From: Anaerolineae bacterium
Lineage (GTDB): Bacteria; Chloroflexota; Anaerolineae; B4-G1; DUEL01
Direction: 5' to 3'
Assembly (NCBI GenBank): GCA_049972045.1
Contig: JBMFKS010000001.1
Coordinates: 11,536 to 75,535 of the forward strand
Length of the DNA: 64,000 nucleotides
Both the position numbers and the translations under genes were made by a program. This document shows positions 6,073 to 63,444 of the stretch, piece by piece; positions within the stretch are counted from its first letter, which is position 1; each line of letters starts with the position of its first letter. The notes under the pieces were generated by a model. The model searched no databases. It had not been told where the DNA came from and was given only the letters and a program-made list of their open reading frames with translations.

Positions 6073-6150
6073 CTGGTGAGCCGTGCAGGATTTGAACCTG
6101 CGGCCAAGGGCTTAAAAGGCCCCTGCTCTACCTGACTGAGCTAACGGCCC
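6073..6150 (-). tRNA. tRNA-Lys (anticodon UUU)
   Basis: Reverse complement GGGCCGTTAGCTCAGTCAGGTAGAGCAGGGGCCTTTTAAGCCCTTGGCCGCAGGTTCAAATCCTGCACGGCTCACCA folds as a cloverleaf. Anticodon loop CTTTTAA, T-loop GGTTCAAATCC, encoded CCA. Confidence 0.85.
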
Positions 6151-6209: not shown

Positions 6210-6238
6210 TTGACACAATCGGGACAGCCGCATATAAT
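6210..6238 (+). promoter_or_regulatory. consensus sigma70-type promoter TTGACA-N17-TATAAT
   Basis: ttgacacaatcgggacagccgcatataat, about 70 nt upstream of the MOP-like gene start. Perfect -35 and -10 hexamers with a 17-nt spacer. Confidence 0.55.
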
Positions 6239-6297
6239 CTCGTCCGTGGTCTGTCGTCCGTCGTCCGTGGTCTGTCGTCCGTCGTCCATGGTCCATT
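6239..6297. repeat. STRR-like heptanucleotide tandem repeat (GTCGTCC/GTCTGTC)x8
   Basis: cgtccgtggtctgtcgtccgtcgtccgtggtctgtcgtccgtcgtccatggtccat lies in the 5' UTR of the MOP-like gene. Same family at 44667-44702, 55956-55982 and 63245-63278. Confidence 0.65.
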
Positions 6298-6309
6298 CTG
6301 GAGGCCTCT

Positions 6310-9030
6310 ATGCCCCCTCTGCAGATGACCGTCAACGGCCAGGCAGTGAGCCTGGATGTGCCCGAGGGCCGTACTCTCGCCGACGTCCTCCGCTATGATT
6401 TGGGCCTCACCGGCACCAAAATCGGCTGCGGCGAAGGGGCCTGTGGCGCTTGCACCGTGCTGGTGAATGACAAACCCGTCCGCTCGTGCCGCTTCCCGGC
6501 CCTCCGGGCCCAGGGCGCCCAGGTCCTCACTATTGAGGGTGTCGCGCAGGGCGGCGTCCTCCACCCCCTCCAGGAAGCCTTCATTCGCTACGGCGCGCTC
6601 CAGTGCGGCTTCTGTACCCCTGGGATGGTGATGACCGCGCTGGGCCTCCTCCTGCGCAACCCCACCCCCACCGACGAGGAGATATTCGCCGCGCTGCGGC
6701 ACAACCTCTGCCGATGTACCGGCTACCGGAGCATCGTGGAAGCCGTCCGCGCGGCCGCCGGACGGGGCGGCGAGCCGTTGGTCCCCGCCACCCGCCCGCC
6801 GGGGCGCGTGGTGGGCCGGCCCCTCCCCCGCCCGGACGCCGTCGCCAAAGTGACCGGCGCCGCCCGCTACGCCGACGACCTGACCTTCCCCGGCATGCTC
6901 CACGGCGCCGTCCTGCGGGCCGGCATCCCCCATGCCCGCATCCGCCGCATAGACGTCTCCGAGGCCCGCGCGCTCCCCGGCGTCCACGCCGTTCTCACCG
7001 GGGAGAACGTCCCCGGCGAGAACCGCCACGGACTGGTCCACCGGGACTGGCCCGTCCTCTGCACCGACAAAGTCCGCTACGTGGGGGATGCGGTCGCGCT
7101 GGTGGCAGCGGAGAGCCCAGAGGCCGCCCGGCAGGCGCTGGAGCACATCCAGGTGGAATACGAGCCGCTGCCGGTGGTGGCGGACGTCTTCCAGGCCCGT
7201 CGTCCGGATGCCCCGCGCGTCCACGAAGACCACCCCGCCGGCAACCTGCTGGCGGAACTTCACGTCCGCCGGGGCGATCCGGAGCGGGGCTTTGCCGAAG
7301 CGGACAAGGTGATAGAGCGGACGTACCAGACTCCGGCTATAGACCACGCCTTTCTGGAGCCGGAGTGTGCGGTCGCCCGGCGCGGGGAGGACGGGCGGAT
7401 GGAGGTGTACGTCGGTTCGCAGATTCCCCATGCCGACCGGGCCCAGATCGCCGCCGCGCTGGGGGAGGACGTCCGGGTGATCGCCACGACGATGGGCGGC
7501 GGGTTCGGCGGCAAGGAGGACATCGCCGGGCAGATTCACGCCGCGCTGCTGGCCCAGGCCACCAGCCGGCCCGTCAAGCTCCGTTACAGCCGGGCCGAAT
7601 CGCTGCTGGCCCACCCCAAGCGGCACGCGATGGTCATCCGGGTGCGATTGGGCGCCCGGCGGGACGGTCGCCTGGTCGCCCTGGAGAGCGAAATCTGGGC
7701 CGACACGGGCGCCTACGCCAGCCTGGGGACAAAGGTGCTGGCCCGCGCCGTCAGCCACGCCGGGGGGCCATACGAGGTCCCCAACGTCCGCATAGACGGC
7801 TATCTCTACTACACCAACAACCCACCCGCCGGGGCATTTCGCGGCTTCGGTGTCCCTCAGGTCGCCTTCGCCCTGGAGAGCGCGCTGGACGAACTGGCCC
7901 ACGAACTGGGGATGGACCCCATCGCCATCCGGCGGCGGAACCTCCTGCGGGTGGGCTCCGTCACCTGCACCGGGCAACGGCTGCGGGAGAGTGTGGGGCT
8001 GGAGGAGTGCCTGGACCGGGTGGAGGCGGAGATTCGCCGGGAGCAGGGGCTGGGGCCGGGGGAGCCGCTCCGCTGGGGGTGGCGGGAGGGGGAGCGGGCG
8101 CTGGGCTGGGGGATCGCGCTGGCCTACAAGAACACCGGCCTGGGCGGCGGCGCCGCCGATTTCGCCATTGCCGAGGTGGAATTGACCGAAGAGGGCGGGG
8201 CCGAAGTGCGCGTCGGTTCGGCGGAGATGGGGCAGGGGCTACCCACGGTCCTGGCGGCCATCGTCGCCGAGGAACTGGGCGTGCCCCCCGAACGGGTTCG
8301 GGTCGTCCCGCCGGATACAGACCGGACCCCCGACGGCGGTCCCACCACCGCCTCCCGCCAGACCTTCGTCTCCGGCAACGCGGTGCGGCTGGCGGCGGTC
8401 CGGCTGCGGGAGCAGATCGCCGCCGTGGTGAGCGAACGGCTGGACCTCCCGCCGGAAGCGCTGGAGTTCCGGGACGGGGCCGTCGCCACGCCGCGCGGGG
8501 AAATCCCGCTGGGGGAGGCCGTCCGGTGGGCGCGGGCGGAAGGGCACCCCACCCTCATCCGACACCGGTACGACATGCCGCCCACCCGGCCCGTGGACCA
8601 GGAGGGGGATACCTACGTGGCCTACAGTTTCGCCGCCCACGCCGCGCTGGTGGAAGTAGACGAGGGGAAGGGCACCCTTCGGGTGCGGAAGATGGTCGTC
8701 GCCCACGACGTGGGGCGGGCGATCAACCCGCTGGCGCTGGAGGGGCAGATTGAGGGCGGGATCGTCATGGGGCTGGGGATGGCGCTGAAGGAGGCGTTCG
8801 TCCTGGAGGGCGGCGTCCCCCGGACGCGCAAACTGGCCGATTGTCGCCTGCCCACGCTGGCGGACGTGCCGGAGATCGTCTCATTCGTCGTGGAGCATCC
8901 CCGTTCGGAGGGGCCCTACGGGGCCAAGGGGGTCGGCGAACTGCCGACGATTCCGGTGGCCCCGGCGGTCGCCAACGGGGTCTATCATGCGGTGGGGGCC
9001 CGCATCCGGCGGTTGCCGCTGAAGCCGTAG
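6310..9030 (+). CDS. xanthine dehydrogenase-family molybdoenzyme with fused N-terminal [2Fe-2S] domain (MOP-like aldehyde oxidoreductase)
   Basis: The N-terminus carries two 2Fe-2S motifs (CGEGACGACTV; CGFCTPGMVM...CRCTGY). It is followed by ~740 aa of molybdopterin-binding aldehyde oxidase/XDH domains. 906 aa, no FAD subunit gene adjacent. Confidence 0.85.
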   Translation: MPPLQMTVNGQAVSLDVPEGRTLADVLRYDLGLTGTKIGCGEGACGACTVLVNDKPVRSCRFPALRAQGAQVLTIEGVAQGGVLHPLQEAFIRYGALQCGFCTPGMVMTALGLLLRNPTPTDEEIFAALRHNLCRCTGYRSIVEAVRAAAGRGGEPLVPATRPPGRVVGRPLPRPDAVAKVTGAARYADDLTFPGMLHGAVLRAGIPHARIRRIDVSEARALPGVHAVLTGENVPGENRHGLVHRDWPVLCTDKVRYVGDAVALVAAESPEAARQALEHIQVEYEPLPVVADVFQARRPDAPRVHEDHPAGNLLAELHVRRGDPERGFAEADKVIERTYQTPAIDHAFLEPECAVARRGEDGRMEVYVGSQIPHADRAQIAAALGEDVRVIATTMGGGFGGKEDIAGQIHAALLAQATSRPVKLRYSRAESLLAHPKRHAMVIRVRLGARRDGRLVALESEIWADTGAYASLGTKVLARAVSHAGGPYEVPNVRIDGYLYYTNNPPAGAFRGFGVPQVAFALESALDELAHELGMDPIAIRRRNLLRVGSVTCTGQRLRESVGLEECLDRVEAEIRREQGLGPGEPLRWGWREGERALGWGIALAYKNTGLGGGAADFAIAEVELTEEGGAEVRVGSAEMGQGLPTVLAAIVAEELGVPPERVRVVPPDTDRTPDGGPTTASRQTFVSGNAVRLAAVRLREQIAAVVSERLDLPPEALEFRDGAVATPRGEIPLGEAVRWARAEGHPTLIRHRYDMPPTRPVDQEGDTYVAYSFAAHAALVEVDEGKGTLRVRKMVVAHDVGRAINPLALEGQIEGGIVMGLGMALKEAFVLEGGVPRTRKLADCRLPTLADVPEIVSFVVEHPRSEGPYGAKGVGELPTIPVAPAVANGVYHAVGARIRRLPLKP

Positions 9031-14821: not shown

Positions 14822-14887
14822 AATGACCCCTCCAGAGAAAACTGTCAGGTGGCTAGACGGCTAACCACTATCGGCTAACGGCTCATC

Positions 14888-15703
14888 ATGAACATCCTCC
14901 AGCACCTGCGAGAACTCTGGCAGTATCGGGACCTGGTCCGCAACCTGGTCATTCGGGACCTGAAGGCCCGTTATAAAAACTCCGTCCTGGGGGTGGCCTG
15001 GTCGTGGGTCAACCCCCTGATGATGATGGTGGTCTACACCGTTGTCTTTAACATCCTGGCGGGCCGTTCCAACCTCCGGAATTATCCGGTCTTCATCCTC
15101 TGTGCCCTATTGCCCTGGAACTTCTTTGCCAACGCCGTCTCCCAGGCGACCAATAGCATCGTGGACGCGGCACCTCTGGTCAAAAAAGTCTATTTCCCCC
15201 GGGAGGTACTCCCCCTCTCCGCCGTACTGAGCAACATGGTTCATTTCCTCATCTCCCTTCCCGTCTTCTTCCTCCTGGCCCTGGCGATGGGGAATCCGCT
15301 GACTGGCTGGGCCCTCCTCTTCCCCATCACCCTCGCAATTCAGGTGATGTTCACCGTCGGCGTCAGTTTCATCACCGCCACCCTGAATGTCTTCTACCGG
15401 GACACCCGGCTGATTATGGACGTGCTCCTGCTGGCCTGGTTCTTCCTCACCCCCATCTTCTACCCCCTCACCACGGTGCCGGAGCAGTACGTCCTCTGGG
15501 GCGTCTCCATCAACGTGCGGGCATGGCTGTTGCGGCTGAACCCGATGGCCTCCATCATCTCCTCATACCGCGACCTTCTGTACTGGGGAGTCTCCACTGC
15601 CTGGGACTTTCTTCTGCGGACGGCGGTGACATCGCTCATCGTCCTGGTCATTGGCTACCTGATCTTCCTGCGGTACAGTCCCCGGTTCGGGGAAGAGGTG
15701 TGA
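14888..15703 (+). CDS. ABC-2 type transporter permease (polysaccharide/teichoic-acid exporter-like)
   Basis: 271 aa, 6 TM. The N-terminal motif LKARYKNSVLGVAWSWVNPL is typical of the KpsM/TagG/Wzm family. No cognate ATPase adjacent. Confidence 0.75.
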   Translation: MNILQHLRELWQYRDLVRNLVIRDLKARYKNSVLGVAWSWVNPLMMMVVYTVVFNILAGRSNLRNYPVFILCALLPWNFFANAVSQATNSIVDAAPLVKKVYFPREVLPLSAVLSNMVHFLISLPVFFLLALAMGNPLTGWALLFPITLAIQVMFTVGVSFITATLNVFYRDTRLIMDVLLLAWFFLTPIFYPLTTVPEQYVLWGVSINVRAWLLRLNPMASIISSYRDLLYWGVSTAWDFLLRTAVTSLIVLVIGYLIFLRYSPRFGEEV

Positions 15704-15720
15704 CAAAGATCGCCTCTAGT

Positions 15721-15848
15721 GGTCAGTCAAGTTTGTACTTATGGGTCCGAATGGCCGACGCGGCCAGGGGCCCACCAGGCGTAGGGCAACTGTGAGCAGT
15801 TGCCCTCCTGGAGGGCGCAAAGACCCACAAAAGGGCGGTTGACAAACC
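15721..15848 (+). repeat. MITE-like ~128-bp repeat element, copy A
   Basis: ggtcagtcaagtttgtacttatgggtccgaatggccgacgcggcc...GGGCAACTGtgagCAGTTGCCC...gacccacaaaagggcggttgacaaacc contains a perfect 9-bp hairpin and a terminal TTGACA. Copies at 32086-32185 (-) and 63305-63432 (+). Confidence 0.65.
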
Positions 15849-15984
15849 ATTAGACACAGAAAGAGTTCTGGGTACAGGATACCCGACTTGCTGGTGGAGC
15901 GCAGGGGGCGGTATGAGTGTTCGGGACTTTTACCCGTACGCCTTTATGGGATTCAACACACCCTTTGAGGTTCCCCAACTCCGC

Positions 15985-31834: not shown

Positions 31835-32085
31835 GGCGCGCCTCCTATTTCAGGTTGATCCAGGCATTTTTATACCCGGACAAGCCGAATTGTCAAGCCT
31901 GGCACTCCCGAGGTTTATCCCACATGCGACGCACCGTACAGTGCGTCGCATTTTGCGACTTCGCCCTCCACCGATGCCCGCCGGCCCTGTGGGTGTTCAA
32001 AGAAAGGCCGATTCCCTATCGCGCCCGTGTTGGCGGGAGAGCCTGCCCCGAATCAGACCCGAATTTTGACGGCACACCCCTACTG

Positions 32086-32185
32086 GTTTGTCAACCGCAC
32101 TTTTGTGGGTCTTTGCGCCCTCCAGTAGGGCAACTGCGAGCAGTTGCCCTACGCTTCGGACCCATCAGCATAAACTTGACTGACC
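32086..32185 (-). repeat. MITE-like repeat element, copy B (shorter, internally deleted)
   Basis: The reverse complement matches copies A/C, including GGGCAACTGctcgCAGTTGCCC, ...gacccacaaaagtgcggttgacaaacc and ggtcagtcaagttta. It lacks the ~27-bp tggccgacgcggcc segment. Confidence 0.55.
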
Positions 32186-33455: not shown

Positions 33456-33881
33456 AGGTCTCCTCCTGTTCTGGGATTGCCTATCCGACAGGCTCCCCTG
33501 GGGAAAGCCCCCTGAGGATACGAAGCATTGACGTGATCCCATCGTGTTTGTCAAAGCCATTCGTCTCTCTTCGGATAGCCCGAAGAACTTCGCTGAATCA
33601 GCCCGACGGTTGACCGTCGGGCGAAAAAGGGCATCCCCGATAACATTGGGGTACCAACGGCGTAAGTCCTACGGGAAACAACAGGGACGGTGTTCCTCTC
33701 TTCATAATATCCTGAATTGCCTCATGGGCAAGTGACAATGATCCATCTGATGGATGACGTTTATCCTTGCGGCCCTTCGTCTCGCTCGGGTAGTAGGACA
33801 AGGTAGTAGGACAAGGCTGAGCCTTGTCCTACGGTGTTTCGGCGCTTGACAATCCCCCCGCCCCTGTTAAAATGAGAACCG

Positions 33882-40781: not shown

Positions 40782-41495
40782 ATGCCACTCCTGAGGATAG
40801 AGAACCTGCACACTTACTACGGCCATGTCCACGCGCTGAAGGGGATTGACCTGGAGGTGGAGGAGGGGGAGATCGTCACCCTCATCGGGGCCAACGGGGC
40901 CGGCAAAAGCACTACGCTCCGCACCATCTCCGGCCTGGTCCGCCCGCGCGAGGGCCGCGTGGAGTTCAACGGGCAGGTCATCAACCACGTTCCGGCTCAT
41001 CAGATCGTCCAGATGGGGGTCTGCCATGTCCCCGAGGGCCGCCGCATCTTCACCACCCTGACGGTGATGGAGAACCTGATGATGGGGGCCTACACGGTCA
41101 AGGACGAGAGGACGATTCGGGAAAACCTCCAGCGGGTCTTTGACCTGTTCCCTCGTCTGGCAGAGCGGAAGAACCAGTTGGGGGGCACCCTCTCCGGCGG
41201 CGAGCAGCAGATGCTGACTATCGGGCGGGCGCTGATGTCCCGGCCGCGGCTCCTACTGCTGGACGAGCCGTCCCTGGGGCTGGCGCCTCTGCTGGTCAAG
41301 GCCATCTTTGAGACCATCCGGGAGATCAACGCGCGCGGCACCACCATCCTGTTGGTGGAGCAGAATGCCCGCGCCGCGCTGAAGATTGCCCATCGGGCCT
41401 ACGTCCTGGAGACCGGGCGGGTCATCCTCTCCGGACCGGCGCAGGAACTGATGCGGGATGAGCGGGTGAGGAAGGCATATTTGGGGGAAAGATAG
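40782..41495 (+). CDS. livF: branched-chain amino acid ABC transporter ATP-binding protein LivF
   Basis: MPLLRIENLHTYYGHVHALKGIDLEVEEGEIVTLIGANGAGKST...LSGGEQQML...LLLDEP. Confidence 0.85.
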   Translation: MPLLRIENLHTYYGHVHALKGIDLEVEEGEIVTLIGANGAGKSTTLRTISGLVRPREGRVEFNGQVINHVPAHQIVQMGVCHVPEGRRIFTTLTVMENLMMGAYTVKDERTIRENLQRVFDLFPRLAERKNQLGGTLSGGEQQMLTIGRALMSRPRLLLLDEPSLGLAPLLVKAIFETIREINARGTTILLVEQNARAALKIAHRAYVLETGRVILSGPAQELMRDERVRKAYLGER

Positions 41496-41500
41496 GGAGT

Positions 41501-42877
41501 ATGGAGTATGGGGTAGGAAGTAGGATGATGAGTCAGGCGGTGTTGTTTGAAGTGGAGGCCGAGTACGCGGGGGCCGAAGCCCGGAGGCTGGAGCAGAAAT
41601 ATGCCCATCGGATGCGGGAGGAGCTGCGGATGGGCCCCCTGGTCTCGTATGTGGGCAACAAGGAGGTTCCCCTTCTCCGTCTCTACCGCTACAAAGAGGC
41701 CTTCACATTCCGGTTCGTGGACGAGTGGCTCACCCGCTTCGGGGTGAATCGGGAAGACACCGTCTTTGACCCCTTCTGTGGAATGGGCACCACGCTGCTG
41801 GCGGCATCTTGTCGTGGGATATCCGCCATCGGCACCGATCGTCTGCCGGTGGCGGTGCTCATCGCCCGCACGCTGCCGCTTTTCTTTCAGGTCCGCCCGG
41901 GAGAACTGACTCGCATCTTTGAGTGCTTGCAGCACATTGTCCCTTCCGCCGAACCGGCCCCCGTCGCGGCCGACGTGGCCATTATGGGCGTCGCGTTCTC
42001 CCCGGATACTCTGCTGGCCCTGCGGCGCTGGAAGGCCGCCATTGACGGCCTGGAATCGCCGTTCCGGGAGATTTTCCTGCTCCTCTTTTTCTCGGTCCTG
42101 GAGCCCTGTAGTTACACATCTAAAGACGGCCAGTTCCTGCGGTTGAAGCGCACCAAGCGGCCAGCGGATCCGGAGGAGGCGCTGGCGGGAAAAGTGCAGG
42201 AGGCCGAAACGGACATCCGGTGGGTTCGGGAATTGGGCTGGGACATCGCCTTCCGGCCGTTCCGGGTCATTCTCGGCGACACCCGGCGGCTGGACGAGGT
42301 CCCCTTTGATCGCCCTCCGACGGTTATCATCACCTCTCCACCCTATGCCAATCGGTACGACTATACCCGGACCTACTCCCTGGAGCTCTGTTTCCACTTC
42401 GTCCGGAACTTTGACGAACTGAGGGAACTGCGGCACAGCCTGCTCCGTTCCCACATTGAGGCCCGACTTTCGCCTACGGAAGAAGCCCCCCATCCGGCCG
42501 TGCGGGAACTGGTGGACTTTCTGCGAGCGCGCGGCAAAGCGCTGAACAACCCCCGAATCCCGGATATGTTAACCGCGTACTTTGTGGACATGCAGAAAGC
42601 CATCCGGGAGTGGAGGAGAGTGTTGGCCCCTTCGGCACGTGTGGCGATGGTTGTGGACAATGTACGCTTTGAGGGCCGGATGCTTCCGGTGGATCTGATC
42701 CTTTCTGAAATGGCCGAGGAAGAGGGTTTCGCTGTGGAGGAAATCGTCGTCGCTCGGTACAAGGGGAACAGTTCCCAGCAAATGGGCCGCTACGGGCGCG
42801 TCCCGGTCCGGGAGAGTATCGTTGTCTGGAGGAAGCAGGGATGGCTTCGGACTCCCGACATCAAACCTGGTTTCTAG
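41501..42877 (+). CDS. DNA methyltransferase (amino-MTase; motif I FCGMGTT, motif IV SPPY)
   Basis: DPFCGMGTT at ~aa 90 and ITSPPYANRYDY at ~aa 320, separated by a long TRD-like region. SPPY favours N4-cytosine/N6-adenine amino-MTases. Lower GC than flanks. Confidence 0.7.
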   Translation: MEYGVGSRMMSQAVLFEVEAEYAGAEARRLEQKYAHRMREELRMGPLVSYVGNKEVPLLRLYRYKEAFTFRFVDEWLTRFGVNREDTVFDPFCGMGTTLLAASCRGISAIGTDRLPVAVLIARTLPLFFQVRPGELTRIFECLQHIVPSAEPAPVAADVAIMGVAFSPDTLLALRRWKAAIDGLESPFREIFLLLFFSVLEPCSYTSKDGQFLRLKRTKRPADPEEALAGKVQEAETDIRWVRELGWDIAFRPFRVILGDTRRLDEVPFDRPPTVIITSPPYANRYDYTRTYSLELCFHFVRNFDELRELRHSLLRSHIEARLSPTEEAPHPAVRELVDFLRARGKALNNPRIPDMLTAYFVDMQKAIREWRRVLAPSARVAMVVDNVRFEGRMLPVDLILSEMAEEEGFAVEEIVVARYKGNSSQQMGRYGRVPVRESIVVWRKQGWLRTPDIKPGF

Positions 42878-43849: not shown

Positions 43850-44060
43850 TCATGCGAAGCCCCTCGGGGCGAGCCCCGTCGGCCACGCCGCGAGCGGCGC
43901 CTCGGGCGAGCCTCGGCGTGGCCCTCGCCGCGCCACGCGCCGAAGGCCTTGGCCCGAAGGGCCTTCGGCCCGAGGGCGCTCGCGCCGAGGCCTTGGGCCG
44001 AGGGCCCCGCGGCCCGAGGGCGTGGCGGGGCGTGGCCCTTCGGGCTTTTTGAGAGCCCCC
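43850..44060 (-). repeat. GC-rich ~150-200 bp repeat (R family), copy 1
   Basis: The reverse complement shares ~60 bp near-identical with 57920-58090 (ccacgccctcgggccgcggggccctcggcccaaggcctcggcgcgagcgcccctcggg). It creates spurious Arg/Pro/Ala ORFs. Confidence 0.5.
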
Positions 44061-44149: not shown

Positions 44150-44668
44150 ATGTCCGAACCTCTTCGTTGCATCAACCACCCCAACGTGGAAACCTACCTG
44201 CGCTGTGCCCGGTGCGGAGTGCCCATCTGCCCCCGCTGCGCGGTGCCGATAGAGGTGGGCTACATCTGCCCGGCCTGCCGCAACCGCCAGCAGCAGGTCT
44301 TCTACGCTGAATTCCGTCCGGTCTACTATCTGGTCGCGGCGGCGGTGGCGCTGCCCTTGGCCTTCATCGCGGGCTGGATCATCCCTGCCTCCGGCTGGCT
44401 GGCGATCTTCCTCGGCCCTTTGGCCGGGACGGGCATCGCCGAGGCGGTCCGCCGGGCCATCCGCCGTCGGCGCGGCCGCTATACCTGGCTGGTCGTCGCC
44501 GCCTGCATCCTGGTCGGCGCCCTGCCCTGGATGCTGGCCCTCCTCCTCCCCAGTCTGGACGCCCCCATCGCTGCCGCGTCCCTCACCGGCATCGCCTGGC
44601 CCCTCCTCTGGGCCATCATCTACTTGGCCGGGGCCATCGGCGCCGCCATCGCTCGGCTGCGGATTTGA
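44150..44668 (+). CDS. B-box-type zinc-finger membrane protein (hypothetical)
   Basis: MSEPLRCINHPNVETYLRCARCGVPICPRCAVPIEVGYICPACRNRQ followed by ~4 TM helices. Confidence 0.5.
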   Translation: MSEPLRCINHPNVETYLRCARCGVPICPRCAVPIEVGYICPACRNRQQQVFYAEFRPVYYLVAAAVALPLAFIAGWIIPASGWLAIFLGPLAGTGIAEAVRRAIRRRRGRYTWLVVAACILVGALPWMLALLLPSLDAPIAAASLTGIAWPLLWAIIYLAGAIGAAIARLRI

Positions 44669-44702
44669 CGACGGACGACGGACGACAGACGACGGACCAC
44701 CG
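44667..44702. repeat. STRR-like heptanucleotide tandem repeat (GACGACG/GACGACA)x5
   Basis: gacgacggacgacggacgacagacgacggaccacc, between the B-box protein stop and the recN start. Confidence 0.6.
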
Positions 44703-44747
44703 TTCATTGTTAATTTTTTAATTGTTCATTTGTCTTTGTGGGAGCTT

Positions 44748-46574
44748 ATGCTCTCCGAACTCCACATCCGCGATTTCGCCATCATAGACGAACTCCACCT
44801 CTCCCTGCCCTCCGGCTTCATCGTCCTGACCGGAGAGACGGGCGCGGGGAAGTCCATCATCATTGACGCCGTCGGCCTGGTGCTGGGGGGACGGGCCGAC
44901 CCCACCGTCGTGCGCGCCGGCGCCGACCGGGCCCTGGTGGAGGCCGTCTTCCGGCTGAGTCCGGCCCATCAGGCCGCCCTGCGCCCCCTCCTGGAGCGAG
45001 AGGGCCTGGAGGGTGACGAACCCGACCTCCTCATCCTCTCCCGCGAAGTGCGAGCCGAAGGGCGGAGCATCTGCCGGGTCAACGGTCGGGCGGTCACCCT
45101 GGCCCTCATGCGGGAGGTGGCCGAGGGGCTGGTGGACATCCACGGCCAGAGCGAGCATCTCTCCCTCCTGCGGGTGCGGGAGCACATCCACATGCTGGAC
45201 CGGTTCGCCGGCCTGGAGGAGGCCCGGGCCCGCGTGGCCGACCTGGTCGCCCAAGTGCGGGCCGTCCGGCGGGAGCGGGCCGGCCTGGAGCAGGACGAGC
45301 AGGAGCGGGCCCGCCGCATAGATCTCCTCCAGTACCAGATGGCCGAGATTGAGGCCGCCGGCCTCCGCCCCGGCGAAGAGGAGGAACTGGCCGAGGAGCG
45401 GGTGCGGCTGGCCAACGCCGAACAACTCTCCCTCCTTCTGGCCGACGCGCTGCGGGCGCTGGACGAGGGCGGCGAAGCGGGCCGCCCTGCCACCGACCAG
45501 TTGGGCCACGCCCTGCGGGCCTTAGAGGGACTGGCCCGCATAGATAGCACCCTCGCCCTTCGCCAGCAGGAGGCCGAAGAACTCCTCTACCGCCTCCAGG
45601 ACCTGGCCGACAGTCTGCGGGAATACCGGAATCGGGTGGAATTCAACCCGCGTCGGTTGGCCGAAGTGGAGGAACGGCTGGACCTCATCCGTCGCCTGAA
45701 ACGCAAATACGGCGCCACCGTTGCCGAAGTGCTGGAATACGCCCGTCGGGCGGCGGCGGAACTGGAGACCCTCGCCCACAGCGAGGAGCGCATCGCCGAA
45801 CTGGCCGCCCGGGAAGCCCAACTCCTGGACAAACTGGCCCGTGCGGCGCTGGACCTCTCCGCCCGCCGTCGGGAGGCCGCAAGACGGCTAGCAGCGGGCA
45901 TTGAGGCCGAACTCCAGGACCTGCGCATGTCCGGTGCCCGCTTTGCCGTGGATTTCCGCTGGACCGCCGACCCCGAGGGCGTCCCGCTGGACCCTGAAGA
46001 CGTCGCGGCGGCGGGCATAGACGTGGGCGATTTCCCTCTTCCGGCCCGCGTCGGTTTTGATGCTACCGGCATAGACCGGGTGGAGTTTCTCGTCTCCCCC
46101 AACCCGGGCGAACCCCTCAAGCCGTTGACCAAAATCGCCTCCGGCGGCGAGACCTCCCGGCTTATGCTGGCCCTCAAGGCCGTTCTCTCCCGCGTGGACG
46201 AGACCCCCACGCTCATTTTTGACGAGATTGACCAGGGCATCGGCGGACGGGTGGGCGCGACGGTGGGGGAGAAACTCTGGCGGCTCACGGTAGCCGATAT
46301 CAACGGCGGCGTGGCCCATCAGGTCCTCTGCGTCACCCACCTGCCACAACTGGCCAGTTTCGGCGACGCCCACCTGCGGGTGGAGAAAATCCCCCTGGAG
46401 GGTCGCACCGTCACCCGGCTGACGGTCCTGGAGGGGCCGGCACGGGTGGAGGAACTGGCCCAGATGCTGGGCGCCAGCGGCGAATCCGCCTACCGGAGCG
46501 CGAGGGAGATTCTGGAGGAAGCGGGAAGCCGGAAGGGCATTGTACAAACGGTGGAACAATGTTATAAACGATGA
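44748..46574 (+). CDS. recN: DNA repair protein RecN
   Basis: MLSELHIRDFAIIDELHLSL...GFIVLTGETGAGKSIIIDA (Walker A), long coiled coil, C-terminal ...LIFDEIDQGIGG (Walker B). Confidence 0.85.
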   Translation: MLSELHIRDFAIIDELHLSLPSGFIVLTGETGAGKSIIIDAVGLVLGGRADPTVVRAGADRALVEAVFRLSPAHQAALRPLLEREGLEGDEPDLLILSREVRAEGRSICRVNGRAVTLALMREVAEGLVDIHGQSEHLSLLRVREHIHMLDRFAGLEEARARVADLVAQVRAVRRERAGLEQDEQERARRIDLLQYQMAEIEAAGLRPGEEEELAEERVRLANAEQLSLLLADALRALDEGGEAGRPATDQLGHALRALEGLARIDSTLALRQQEAEELLYRLQDLADSLREYRNRVEFNPRRLAEVEERLDLIRRLKRKYGATVAEVLEYARRAAAELETLAHSEERIAELAAREAQLLDKLARAALDLSARRREAARRLAAGIEAELQDLRMSGARFAVDFRWTADPEGVPLDPEDVAAAGIDVGDFPLPARVGFDATGIDRVEFLVSPNPGEPLKPLTKIASGGETSRLMLALKAVLSRVDETPTLIFDEIDQGIGGRVGATVGEKLWRLTVADINGGVAHQVLCVTHLPQLASFGDAHLRVEKIPLEGRTVTRLTVLEGPARVEELAQMLGASGESAYRSAREILEEAGSRKGIVQTVEQCYKR

Positions 46575-49640: not shown

Positions 49641-49720
49641 TCCCTCCTTATCCCTACTCCCTACTTCCTACTCCCTACTTCCTACTCCCTACTTCCTACT
49701 CCCTACCCTCTACTCCCAGA
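49641..49720. repeat. purine heptamer tandem repeat (mRNA sense GGAGUAG/GAAGUAG, 9 units) spanning the cmr4 stop and cmr5 RBS
   Basis: Plus strand has ctactcc/ctacttc x9 from 49654 to 49716. Every unit carries UAG and a GGAG-like SD. Confidence 0.7.
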
Positions 49721-55183: not shown

Positions 55184-55948
55184 CTACCCTTTAGCGATTC
55201 CTTCTACGACGCACTCCCGCGCGCCGCTATCCACGAAGCCCGCCGATTCGGCCAGGCGGGCGGAAGGTTCATTGCCCTCGGCGACGACGTAGAGGGGGAT
55301 GGCGCCAGAGCGCAGAATCCAGGTGATGCAGGCGTCCAGCACGGCCTTGCCCCAGCCGCGCCGCTGGGCCTCCGGGGCCGTCCGGACGTAGACTTCGGCG
55401 AAGTGGGGGGACTGCCAGTTGATGCCGGCCTCGGCGACGATCTGGGCCTCCTGGGAGCGGATGACGAAGCGGGGGGAGCCGTTGGCCGCCTGGGCCGGGG
55501 TAACCAGGACGTGGATCTCCGGCGCGTAGCGCCTCAGATCCAGGTAGTAGATGCGGTTGAGGCTGACCCGTTCCACCTCCAGCGCCTCCTCGGCGACGCC
55601 CAGCAGGTCAGGGGTGGTCACCAGGTAGTAGGGGCGGCGGGGGAGGCCGCCGCCGGAGGGGGAGAGGCCCCGCTGCAGGAGAGCCTGGGCGACGTCTATA
55701 CGGCGGGCGCGCAGGACGCTGATGGGCCGGAAGAGGTCCCAGCCCGTCTGGCAGATGGCCAGGAATCCCTCCACGCGCGGCCCGCGTTCGGCCACCCAGA
55801 GCCGGGTGCGCGCCGGGTCGTGGTAAAGGACGTAGTAGGCGGCCAGGCCGTCGCGCGGGGCGCTGAGGTCCAGTATCGTCCGCACCTTGCGGCGCAGTTC
55901 CTCCAGGTCCTGGGTGACTTCCTGTTCCTGCGGGGTGAACCAGTCCAT
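55184..55948 (-). CDS. GNAT-family N-acetyltransferase domain protein
   Basis: C-terminal acetyl-CoA-binding motif ...QRRGWGKAVLDACI... (GNAT motif A). Confidence 0.6.
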   Translation of the reverse strand: MDWFTPQEQEVTQDLEELRRKVRTILDLSAPRDGLAAYYVLYHDPARTRLWVAERGPRVEGFLAICQTGWDLFRPISVLRARRIDVAQALLQRGLSPSGGGLPRRPYYLVTTPDLLGVAEEALEVERVSLNRIYYLDLRRYAPEIHVLVTPAQAANGSPRFVIRSQEAQIVAEAGINWQSPHFAEVYVRTAPEAQRRGWGKAVLDACITWILRSGAIPLYVVAEGNEPSARLAESAGFVDSGARECVVEGIAKG

Positions 55949-55955
55949 GGGTCTT

Positions 55956-55982
55956 GACCACTGACGACGGACGACAGACGAG
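55956..55982. repeat. STRR-like heptanucleotide tandem repeat (x4)
   Basis: gaccactgacgacggacgacagacgag, immediately upstream of the GNAT start codon on the opposite strand. Confidence 0.55.
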
Positions 55983-57919: not shown

Positions 57920-58090
57920 TACGCAGTCGGGGGATTGCGCCTCGGGCGAGAAGCCCCCTCGGCCACGCCGCGCCACGCCCTCGGGCCGCGGGGCCCTCGG
58001 CCCAAGGCCTCGGCGCGAGCGCCCCTCGGGCTGAGCCTTCGGGGCGGGGCCCCTCGCTGGGGCTCGGCGCAACGCTGGCGGCCCGCGCTA
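57920..58090 (+). repeat. GC-rich repeat (R family), copy 2
   Basis: Shares ~60 bp with the reverse complement of 43850-44060. A partial third copy lies at 60040-60110. Confidence 0.5.
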
Positions 58091-61657: not shown

Positions 61658-63244
61658 TTAACCGAAAGGCACCGGGAGGCGGTCGCGGGGGGGGCGGGGA
61701 AGGCTAAAGGAGAAGGTGGCGCCTTTCCCCGGCTCACTTTCCACCCAGATACGCCCCCCGTGGGCCTCCACAATGGCCCGGGCCAGGTACAGCCCCAGGC
61801 CAACGCCCCCTGCCTGCCGGACGGGCGCCTCGTCCACCCGGTAGAAGGGATCAAAGATGCGGCCCTGTTCCGTCACGGGGATGCCGATGCCCTCGTCGCT
61901 GACCGAAACGACCACTTCCTCGGGCCGGACCTCCCCCCGGATGCGGATCCGTCCGCCCTCCGGCGAGTACTTGATGGCGTTGGAGACCAGGTTGTTCAGC
62001 ACCTGCTCCAGGCGCAGGGGGTCCCCCTGGACGGTGGGAAAGTCCGGCGGGAAACGGACAGCGATGTCGTGCCGGTCGGTCTGGGGCTGGAACCGCTGGG
62101 CGACCCGTCGGGCCAGTACCTCCAGGTCCACCTCCTCCTGCTGGAGCGGCAACGCCCGGGCCTGGATGCGGGAAGCGTCCAGCAGGTCGGTGATCAGACG
62201 GTCCAGCCGTCGGGCCTCCTCCTGGATGACCCCGGCCAGTTCCCGGACGGTCCCCGCGTCCCACTGGGCGTCCGGGCGGGCCAGGGTCTCGGCGTACCCC
62301 AGAATGGTCGCCACCGGCGTCTTCAGTTCGTGGGAGACGACGGAGACGAAGGTGGACTTGAGCCGGTCCGCCTCCCGGAAGCGGGTGATGTCCCGCACGT
62401 TGGCGATGATGTTGACCAGTTTTCCCTCCCGGTCCAGGAGGGGGGCATAGGTGATGCCCACGCTGAGGACGCCACCGGTCCGACGGCGCAGGTCTCCCTC
62501 CACATAGAGCACCGTCTTCCCGCGGGACTGGGCCAGGGGCCAGCCGCCCGCAGTGGCCCGGCTCAGGTCCATCTCCGTATCCCGCCGCGCCCACTGGATG
62601 ACCTCGTCGTGGTGGCGGCCGATGGCCTCCGCCGCCGACCAGCCGGTCATCTCCGCCAGCGCGCGGTTGAAGACGGTGATGCGCTGGCCGGGGTCCAGGA
62701 TCATCACCCCGTCGGCACTGTGCTCCAGGATGGCGTCCAGACGACGCTTCTCCTGGGCCAGCCGCTGGTACAACTGGGCGTTGTGGACGGCGATGGCGGC
62801 CTGGTCGGCGAAACTGGCCAGGACCTGCCGGTCGTCGGCCGTGAAGGCCGCGCCGTAGGCCCGAATGACGTAGAGGACGCCGATCAGTTCCTGCCCGATG
62901 CGCATCGGCAGGGCGATGATCTGGCTGAAGGGAAGGCCGGTCCGCAGGGCAACCTCTGCCAGTTTCGCCTCCAGGTCGGGGATGTGGAAGAGAAACGGGT
63001 CCACCTGGTTGGGAATGTCTGCCAGGAGGAGGGAAAAGTAGTCCTGGAGGCGAGAGGGAAAGCCGCGCGCGGCGCGAATGGTGAACCGCCCGTCCAGTTC
63101 CCGGACGGCGATGAGGGCCGCCTGCCCGCCCAGCATCTCCATAGCCGCCTTCAGCACCTCCGAGAGGACGGTATCCAGGTCCAGTTGGGCGGTCAGCGCG
63201 CGGCTGATTTTCAGCAGATAGTCCCGCTGGCGAATCCAGTACAT
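61658..63244 (-). CDS. sensor histidine kinase (GAF + PAS + HisKA + HATPase_c)
   Basis: HisKA SHELKTPVATILGYAETL. HATPase N-, G1- and G2-boxes (NNLVSNAIKYS...DEGIGIP...GGVGLGL). Confidence 0.8.
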   Translation of the reverse strand: MYWIRQRDYLLKISRALTAQLDLDTVLSEVLKAAMEMLGGQAALIAVRELDGRFTIRAARGFPSRLQDYFSLLLADIPNQVDPFLFHIPDLEAKLAEVALRTGLPFSQIIALPMRIGQELIGVLYVIRAYGAAFTADDRQVLASFADQAAIAVHNAQLYQRLAQEKRRLDAILEHSADGVMILDPGQRITVFNRALAEMTGWSAAEAIGRHHDEVIQWARRDTEMDLSRATAGGWPLAQSRGKTVLYVEGDLRRRTGGVLSVGITYAPLLDREGKLVNIIANVRDITRFREADRLKSTFVSVVSHELKTPVATILGYAETLARPDAQWDAGTVRELAGVIQEEARRLDRLITDLLDASRIQARALPLQQEEVDLEVLARRVAQRFQPQTDRHDIAVRFPPDFPTVQGDPLRLEQVLNNLVSNAIKYSPEGGRIRIRGEVRPEEVVVSVSDEGIGIPVTEQGRIFDPFYRVDEAPVRQAGGVGLGLYLARAIVEAHGGRIWVESEPGKGATFSFSLPRPPRDRLPVPFG

Positions 63245-63278
63245 AGACCACAGACGATGGACAATGGACGACGGACGG
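63245..63278. repeat. STRR-like heptanucleotide tandem repeat (x5)
   Basis: agaccacagacgatggacaatggacgacggacgg abuts the histidine-kinase start codon (63244). Confidence 0.55.
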
Positions 63279-63304
63279 CTAACCCCTAACGGCTAACGGC
63301 TACT

Positions 63305-63432
63305 GGTCAGTCAAGTTTATACTTATGGGTCCGAATGGCCGACGCGGCCAAGGGCCCACCAGGCGTAGGGCAACTGTGAGCAGTTGCCCTACTGGAGGGC
63401 GCAAAGACCCACAAAAGGGCTGTTGACAAACC
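63305..63432 (+). repeat. MITE-like repeat element, copy C
   Basis: Near-identical to copy A (15721-15848), including GGGCAACTGtgagCAGTTGCCC and the terminal ttgacaaacc. Confidence 0.65.
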
Positions 63433-63444
63433 CCTACACCCCCC

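Follow-up and report, generated by a model that had tools for sequence, protein, structure and literature searches.

Heptanucleotide tandem repeat arrays at gene boundaries of an Anaerolineae bacterium (Chloroflexota): copy number, orientation and relation to known repeats

The stretch of DNA analysed here (the window) comprises 64,000 nucleotides of an Anaerolineae bacterium, phylum Chloroflexota (assembly GCA_049972045.1, contig JBMFKS010000001.1). The genome is metagenome-assembled and Thermoflexales-like; source names of proteins give 'Anaerolineae bacterium' for RecN and 'Thermoflexales bacterium' for a member of its cluster. Four tandem tracts of the heptanucleotide GGACGAC, or GTCGTCC on the other strand, lie between its genes, beside those for a molybdopterin oxidoreductase, RecN, a GNAT acetyltransferase and a histidine kinase. 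The tracts are part of a genome-wide population of heptanucleotide simple sequence repeat (SSR) arrays, a known class. Probably they are long SSRs resembling the short tandemly repeated repetitive (STRR) sequences, made by slippage and confined to untranslated regions (UTRs). The original prediction had described STRR-like heptanucleotide repeats at several dispersed intergenic loci, and this description is supported. Its proposal of a locus-specific regulatory element is not: the neighbouring genes share no function, and most of the arrays are missing in sister species.

Heptamer arrays, their copy number and their loss

Genes of the window were called with a look-up tool, and a self-trained codon model gave the same calls. 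An autocorrelation scan at periods 4–13 detected six period-7 array sites, all intergenic; 0.0 are expected in shuffled sequence. Non-coding DNA makes up 10% of the window (GC content 65%) and contains every period-7 array; none falls in a called open reading frame (ORF). Periods 8–13 gave zero arrays, and period-6 arrays are nearly all coding. The two-unit probe GGACGACGGACGAC, with at most 2 mismatches, matches 16 times in the window, compared with 0.99 ± 1.08 times in 100 dinucleotide-preserving shuffles; 14 of the 16 matches are held by the four GGACGAC/GTCGTCC-family tracts. Two further families, GGRAGTA and TAACGGC, are present. All window arrays have the properties of long SSRs: a unit of 5–11 nt, head-to-tail order and a length beyond chance.

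Array T1 (6240-6295, plus strand) consists of eight heptamers, TCGTCCG/TGGTCTG, with a 21-nt higher-order period. Its pyrimidine-rich strand is the sense strand of the downstream gene for a 2Fe-2S/molybdopterin oxidoreductase of 906 aa (6310-9030, plus strand). Array T2 (44666-44700, plus strand) reads TGACGAC GGACGAC GGACGAC AGACGAC GGACCAC, with the purine-rich strand as sense. Its first three bases are the TGA stop of an upstream 172-aa gene; the ATG of recN, at 44748, lies 47 nt downstream. Array T3 (55955-55982, minus strand) has four degenerate units, TGACCAC TGACGAC GGACGAC AGACGAG, and T4 (63245-63279, minus strand) has five, AGACCAC AGACGAT GGACAAT GGACGAC GGACGGC. In both, the pyrimidine strand is sense: T3 for the GNAT gene (55184-55948), 6 nt upstream of its ATG, and T4 for the GAF-PAS histidine kinase gene (61658-63244), 0 nt from its ATG. 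Neither start has a Shine-Dalgarno (SD) sequence. T3 and T4 are presumably 5' leader, directly upstream of the starts; no promoter was identified for either.

The other families occur at three places. A TAACGGC-family array, TAACCCC TAACGGC TAACGGC (63280-63300, minus strand), is fused to T4, forming a compound array. An ABC ATPase gene (TAG stop, 41493-41495) is separated by 29 nt from a DNA methyltransferase gene (ATG, 41525), part of a restriction-modification pair, and array T5 (41496-41523, plus strand; GGAGTAT GGAGTAT GGGGTAG GAAGTAG) takes up all of this gap; the units of T5 contain the SD-like motif GGAG. Array T6 (49645-49715, minus strand) has about 10 units, GGGAGTA/GGAAGTA, on the sense (minus) strand and covers everything from a type III RAMP gene's stop (49696) up to the SD belonging to a 142-aa gene (ATG 49637). 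T2, T5 and T6 are intercistronic or 3' regions. Two further TAACGGC-family units (CGGCTAACGGCT, 14866-14887) stand right before an ATG at 14888, under the array threshold. The four tracts first predicted were confirmed unit by unit, as was their sense strand (pyrimidine at three loci, purine at recN); the three arrays of other families had been overlooked. Distances to the start codon, given as about 15–60 nt, are 14, 47, 6 and 0 nt.

Copy number was compared between conspecific assemblies at least 99.6% identical. For T1, GCA_049970195.1 carries 11 units (+21 nt); the window and two further assemblies carry 8, and the flanks are identical. At T2, among eight assemblies with identical RecN, three have 4 units, as does the window, three have 5 and one has 6; one assembly (L007) ends inside T2 and was left out of this scoring, which counts the window as 4 units where the unit listing of 44666-44700 gives five heptamers. 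All remaining bases of the region aligned around T2 are identical. T6 is longer by 3 units (+21 nt) in JGI 3300041917. T3 is identical in nine assemblies and T5 in three; T4 is identical in L017 (invariant, two assemblies).

In the four cleanest comparisons the indels are confined to whole units of the arrays. Window and L001 differ over 21,827 aligned nt by 4 mismatches and a single indel, of 7 nt in T2. The figures for L002 are 13,457 nt, 8 mismatches and a single indel of 14 nt in T2; for L003, 9,023 nt, 7 mismatches and two indels, one in T2 (7 nt) and one in T6 (21 nt); for L144, 2,919 nt, 1 mismatch and a single indel in T1 (21 nt). A few further small gaps are seen in two shorter contigs (L004, L006). 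Substitutions between the strains amount to about 0.2–0.8 per kb. These alignments mark the long, pure arrays as hot spots for indels, which alter more quickly than point substitutions build up. Long, pure arrays are variable, and short, degenerate ones (GNAT, kinase, methylase) are invariant, as is typical of ordinary SSRs. The expected variation between strains was thus found in whole-unit steps, the signature of slippage, at T1, T2 and T6, and not at the GNAT and kinase tracts (nine and two assemblies). In a metagenome contig collection, flank patterns around T1 and T2 gave 0 matches; the T2 pattern is valid, matching 7 loci, so the contigs in question are absent from that collection.

The proposed mechanism is as follows. 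Slipped-strand mispairing while DNA is synthesised would add and remove whole units. As 7 cannot be divided by 3, arrays would survive only in untranslated DNA. There they would fill dispensable space that functional elements (-10 box, SD or start codon, stop codon) leave between them. No other sites in the genome change as fast as the arrays. Any effect on a neighbouring gene would act through leader length and would probably be small.

Loci of sister species, syntenic and about 88% identical in DNA, are consistent with rapid turnover. In L140/L141, 21.8 kb are free of arrays. L140 shares the TGA stop found at T2 but has only two proto-units after it; at the orthologous site of T3 it has nothing. 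T5 is absent in L140 and in L142. In L142 a degenerate array fills the interval from the T2-site stop to the recN start, other families occur downstream of recN, and the T6 site has only about 2 units. Over the time that species take to diverge, arrays thus arise, grow and disappear, and so they are not conserved regulatory elements. Nor can their positioning be called locus-specific in evolutionary terms, as first proposed, when orthologous sites have no array or 2 units.

An AT-rich stretch (TTGTTAATTTTTTAATTGTTCATTTG, 44706-44735) lies between T2 and recN. L140 and L142 lack about 16 nt of it in their orthologous spacers. A promoter or operator belonging to recN itself may be located in it; a simple sigma-70 consensus scan of the stretch gave no match.

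An explanation by chance microsatellites or by artefacts of assembly, lacking any biological regularity, is extremely improbable, in agreement with the original prediction, which had disfavoured random microsatellites. T3 and T4 have only 4–5 degenerate units, and the length alleles come from metagenome assemblies. Set against this are the zero arrays expected in shuffles, the intergenic position of all six sites, the recurrence of the same alleles in independent assemblies, and a strong polarity across 17 genomes, described below.

The leader of the oxidoreductase gene

T1 has the best-defined limits. A sigma-70-type promoter, TTGACA-17-TATAAT (6210-6238, plus strand), matches the consensus at 12/12 positions, and the first unit of T1 begins 1 nt past its -10 hexamer. 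The array ends 4 nt before an SD, GGAGG (6300-6304, plus strand), which precedes the ATG (6310-6312, plus strand). T1 is predicted to form nearly the whole 5' UTR of the oxidoreductase gene, because the consensus promoter and the SD bound it. A tRNA-Lys gene (6074-6150, minus strand) lies on the other side.

Relatives of the oxidoreductase occur in metagenome-assembled genomes (MAGs) of Anaerolineae, Chloroflexi and Caldilineae; no database record was found for the exact 906-aa sequence. T1 alleles were collected through the neighbouring DUF456 protein. Two orthologous loci (L137, L138; about 90% aa identity, same tRNA neighbour) keep the promoter and the SD, and the array between them differs, the interval holding 4 or 6 degenerate heptamers. 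L137 has an additional inverted array upstream of the -35 box. No array is present upstream of a homologue of 91% aa identity in another gene neighbourhood (P0001, locus L139), nor in orthologues of 80–82% identity.

P0001 (L139 1501-4326) is called at 941 aa, 35 aa above the length of its relatives. Downstream of the called start stands an ATG (ATGTCCACG...) preceded by GGGGGAAAGG; the start was probably called too far upstream. The extension is not related to an array, since the upstream region of P0001 has no heptamer array.

A structured cis-regulatory RNA (riboswitch or leader) was considered and rejected. An Rfam search of the window detected tRNA-Lys only and no RNA family at the tracts. 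The tract regions fold with ordinary energies compared with shuffled sequence (z = -0.38, 0.22, -0.27, -1.65, -0.05).

The arrays might instead act as expression rheostats or contingency loci: leader copy number would tune the downstream gene, and slippage would make heritable variants. The model is hmw1A/hmw2A of Haemophilus influenzae, with (ATCTTTC)n in the 5' UTR, a 7-nt SSR whose copy number is driven by slippage (PMC12721329, PMC8262952). The hmw repeat is transcribed in the 5' UTR, and expression is inversely proportional to repeat number, an experimentally established precedent (PMC12721329). T1 resembles it as a 7-nt SSR between promoter and start codon. Placed between promoter and SD, its 8- and 11-unit alleles would give leaders differing by about 21 nt. 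Arrays persist in the oxidoreductase leader in three lineages, copy number at T1, T2 and T6 is polymorphic between assemblies, as in contingency loci, and T5 lies directly before a restriction-modification methyltransferase gene, a class often phase-variable. In hmw, however, a long hairpin has the repeat as one of its arms and is processed by RNase III; no such hairpin is predicted for the window tracts, and the leaders show no special RNA structure (z -0.38 to +0.22). The start-proximal GNAT and kinase arrays are invariant, none of the neighbours (oxidoreductase, recN, GNAT, kinase) is a gene of the surface or of host interaction, and sister species do without the arrays. No tract lies between -35 and -10 or inside a reading frame, which makes classical on/off phase variation impossible; the original prediction had suggested a phase-variable role. 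A rheostat is considered unlikely; a graded effect through the length of the 5' UTR would be possible.

Orientation at gene boundaries

The purine-rich strand of the arrays reads 5'→3' away from the adjacent gene end, so that the pyrimidine strand is found in 5' leaders and the purine strand after stops. The rule is statistical. It was obtained from clearly intergenic GGACGAC-family arrays of Chloroflexota with well-scoring flanking genes, the purine strand being written 5'→3'. In repeat-dense Chloroflexia loci, 47 of 159 arrays fall inside long, low-scoring ORFs and were left out; these ORFs are probably artefacts, because the units contain no stop codons.

In 38/43 arrays (38 vs 5, p = 2.5e-7) the 5' boundary is the nearer of the two flanking gene boundaries, the median distances being 10 nt on the 5' and 110 nt on the 3' side. 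By genome, the 5'-side bias is found in 15/17. The near boundary is a stop codon in 21/43 arrays, within -10 to +3 nt in 16 of these 21; a TGA or TAG stop often opens the first unit, as upstream of recN. In the remaining 22/43 it is a start codon, within -4 to 18 nt in 11 of 22, and the array often abuts the SD. Non-random placement against gene boundaries, as originally predicted, thus holds in Chloroflexota. Carriers of the GGACGAC unit outside the phylum, run through the same pipeline, have no polarity (17 vs 17; Fisher's exact p = 3e-4 against Chloroflexota). Because of this control, the bias is not a by-product of the method.

A count free of gene calls gave the same picture. Neighbouring GGACGAC-family arrays within 150 nt (R, purine-rich; Y, pyrimidine-rich) stand in RY order 18 times, YR 0, RR 5 and YY 2; with all heptamer families classed by purine content, the figures are RY 17 and YR 0. 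The inverted array of L137 places the oxidoreductase promoter inside the spacer of such an RY pair.

All four GGACGAC-family tracts of the window obey the rule. The recN tract appears as the odd one out because it belongs to the upstream stop codon: it is not positioned on the recN start, as first thought, but begins on the TGA of the upstream gene, the usual site for this orientation. Bracketing of genes, in which a pyrimidine array at the 5' end would pair with a purine array at the 3' end of one mRNA, was rejected, since 0/4 window genes have both. A replication-strand cause was rejected by argument: start- and stop-abutting arrays beside co-oriented genes are oppositely oriented to the fork.

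In Xanthomonas and Nostoc, the GGGNATC/GGGGAYT repeats follow the same rule (Rehm et al. 2015, PMC4692102). There, too, the repeat lies nearer the ORF on its 5' side, whatever the orientation of the ORF. The G-rich strand is coding after stops, overlaps included, and non-coding before starts; copy number is variable, and neighbouring genes have no common functional class. The units of these repeats contain GGG runs, form G-quadruplexes in vitro and prefer arrays of 4 units. GGACGAC differs in having GG only and arrays of 3 to more than 13 units. Since it has GG only, the polarity cannot depend on a canonical G-quadruplex.

Several points weigh against the reading of the tracts as slippage-made long SSRs that merely fill space. 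A neutral filler predicts neither a strong orientation rule nor exact abutment to stop, SD and start; it fails on abutment because expansion pushes the flanks apart and moves no array towards a gene. Selection against frameshifts does not by itself explain a unit of 7 rather than 5, 8 or 10 nt. Slippage rests on the whole-unit pattern of change, and the transcription start at T1 on a consensus match. The length alleles come from short-read metagenome assemblies; a read is longer than the arrays (28–80 nt), however, and the recN alleles of 4 and 5 units turn up again in independent assemblies. The gene caller of the census was home-made, a self-trained codon model validated on L001 only and unreliable in repeat-dense regions.

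It is conceivable, though doubtful, that the arrays are orientation-dependent UTR modules in Chloroflexota, Xanthomonas and Nostoc, here without G-quadruplex potential, and reflect a general, undescribed process. This could be directional control of transcription at gene boundaries or strand-specific birth of 7-nt repeats at gene ends. A polar factor or process (Rho, an S1/Csp-type RNA binder, R-loop-prone purine-rich transcripts that halt transcription on its way out of a gene) would act on single-stranded RNA or DNA; the purine strand after stops would serve as a directional insulator or terminator and the pyrimidine strand before starts as a leader element. The boundary bias (38 vs 5; 15/17 genomes) and the RY excess (18 vs 0, independent of gene calling) point this way, as do the L137 promoter within its RY spacer, the place of T2 between a stop codon and recN's own upstream region, and the same rule in the unrelated heptamers of Xanthomonas and Nostoc (PMC4692102). 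Binding of S1, Csp or CsrA was proposed by MacGregor (PMC4679880) for the start-proximal TAACTGA repeats treated below. A single sequence-specific binder, on the other hand, is hard to reconcile with many unit sequences per genome. Sister species can dispense with the arrays, and carriers outside Chloroflexota have no polarity. The two modes are different RNAs (GUCGUCC and GGACGAC), for which a single RNA-level function is hard to formulate.

Inverted array pairs could also serve as the arms of an intergenic stem-loop, that is, a terminator, a stabiliser or a mobile foldback element. The 18 RY pairs within 150 nt in Chloroflexota agree with this, some having short spacers right after a stop (such as L025, L057 and L059). 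Yet YR order would form a hairpin equally well and never occurs. The spacers have no common core, no window array has a partner within 150 nt, and the window tract regions fold with ordinary energies. Hairpin arms are a very improbable explanation.

Distribution, known repeat classes and significance

The exact 20-mer GACGACGGACGACGGACGAC was searched in one genome per species and gave at least 119 stretches. Among the matches listed, 53 come from about 24 genomes of Chloroflexota: Chloroflexia, Anaerolineales, Caldilineaceae, Ardenticatenaceae and Thermoflexus. Other carriers among the matches listed include Streptomyces, Kofleriaceae, Omnitrophota, Kiritimatiellia and Acidimicrobiia; the window's own species has no locus among them. 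The Chloroflexota loci are rich in further heptamers (GATGCGT, ATAGACG, GGATTTT, GGAATGC, GGCAGTA, CCCCAGT), often in compound arrays.

One Chloroflexia MAG, SMAG_U8985 (L034, L041, L054, L102, L113, L135), accounts for more than 20 of the matches listed (at least 119 in all). Its compound arrays run from the boundary outward as (GGACGAC)n, (AGACGAT)n, then GTGATGC/GTGAAAC or GGCAGTA; some exceed 100–230 nt. A Chitinophagales MAG (Bacteroidota, 47% GC; L083 622-7508) has at least 6 arrays mixing GGACGAC, GGACCAC and AGACCAC, as in the window, and two neighbouring array pairs in RY order. A Caldilineaceae MAG (JAWKOL010000002.1; L037 7336-7494) has (GGGGACT)n, then, after about 65 nt, (CCCCAGT)n, in RY order. 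Cyanobacterial STRR1 has the latter unit, here present in a Chloroflexota genome.

STRR sequences were reportedly described in heterocystous cyanobacteria by Mazel et al. in 1990. The units of STRR1-3 are CCCCAGT, TTGGTCA and CAACAGT. The window arrays resemble them as tandem heptanucleotides of several families per genome, dispersed over many, mostly non-coding loci. They differ in host, which is a member of Chloroflexota and not a cyanobacterium, and in unit, GGACGAC, GGRAGTA and TAACGGC being none of STRR1-3. A literature search on the GGACGAC unit sequence itself gave nothing relevant.

Long SSRs of 5–11 nt are the nearest general class. Heptamers are the commonest of them in bacteria, and polymerase slippage has been proposed as their origin (Mrazek et al. 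2007, as cited in PMC4679880). In that account they share with the window arrays a length beyond chance, dominance of heptamers, intergenic position and a proposed origin by slippage. The survey predates most Chloroflexota genomes and, as far as it is reported there, describes no orientation rule.

TAACTGA direct repeats are known from marine Beggiatoaceae, cyanobacteria and Bacteroidetes (MacGregor 2015, PMC4679880). Like T3 and T4, they stand a few nt upstream of starts, often without SD; some overlap the end of the upstream ORF, and strains differ by indels in 7-nt steps. In the genome studied there, most sets point towards the start codon, in contrast to the Chloroflexota arrays, of which 21 abut stops and 22 starts. 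The unit is another one, T1 has an SD, T2 abuts a stop, and starts without SD are common in the window. The idea, after MacGregor, that the SD is missing because of the repeat is uninformative here, an SD-like motif being absent from 22/53 window genes anyway. Within the phylum, Chloroflexus aurantiacus has heptamer-derived satellites, (GATAGRA)n (Subirana and Messeguer 2019, PMC6749651). These are likewise scattered through the genome. They belong to another class, Chloroflexia, and have another unit; the paper gives counts only, with no analysis of copy number, placement or orientation.

The window has other repeats too. A dispersed element of about 135–140 nt has three intergenic copies (15716-15855, 63300-63439 and, inverted, 32080-32154), 92–94% identical, in which a 12-bp hairpin (GTAGGGCAACTG...CAGTTGCCCTAC) is conserved and the ends are close to motifs resembling TTGACA. 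The copy at 63300 adjoins the heptamer arrays of T4; the other copies have no heptamers. Rfam gave no match. The element could be one of the miniature inverted-repeat transposable elements (MITEs) or a small RNA gene. GC-rich repeats at 43897-44050 and 57937-58070, both intergenic, consist of palindromic units of the CCTCGGGC/GCCCGAGG type with periods of 15–44 nt (TRF); the two sites match each other in direct and also in inverted orientation (74 nt, 93% complementary). Upstream of lepA, at 33789-33835 and 33846-33873, a 13-nt direct repeat (GGTAGTAGGACAA, two copies) shares part of its sequence with an 11-bp hairpin (GTAGGACAAGG...CCTTGTCCTAC). Shortly downstream of it follows a promoter-like TTGACA-16-TAAAAT, which ends only 8 nt before the lepA ATG (33882). 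The site may be an operator with a near-leaderless start.

Heptanucleotide repeats of bacteria have been known since 1990. To our knowledge, neither their preference for 7 nt nor their function has been explained. The repeat class and its orientation rule are known; added here are a little-studied lineage, a clean case of hypermutability and the rule in a unit without canonical G-quadruplex. The locus set is a clean natural experiment, in which near-identical strains have, in the four cleanest comparisons, whole array units as their only indels. The sharp limits of T1, from consensus promoter to SD, suit it to a direct test of leader length. The arrays are useful as strain markers, and they are likely break points, or sites of miscalled start codons, in metagenome assemblies. 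That the orientation rule is obeyed by a unit incapable of a canonical quadruplex makes the quadruplex explanation less convincing and suggests a broader basis.

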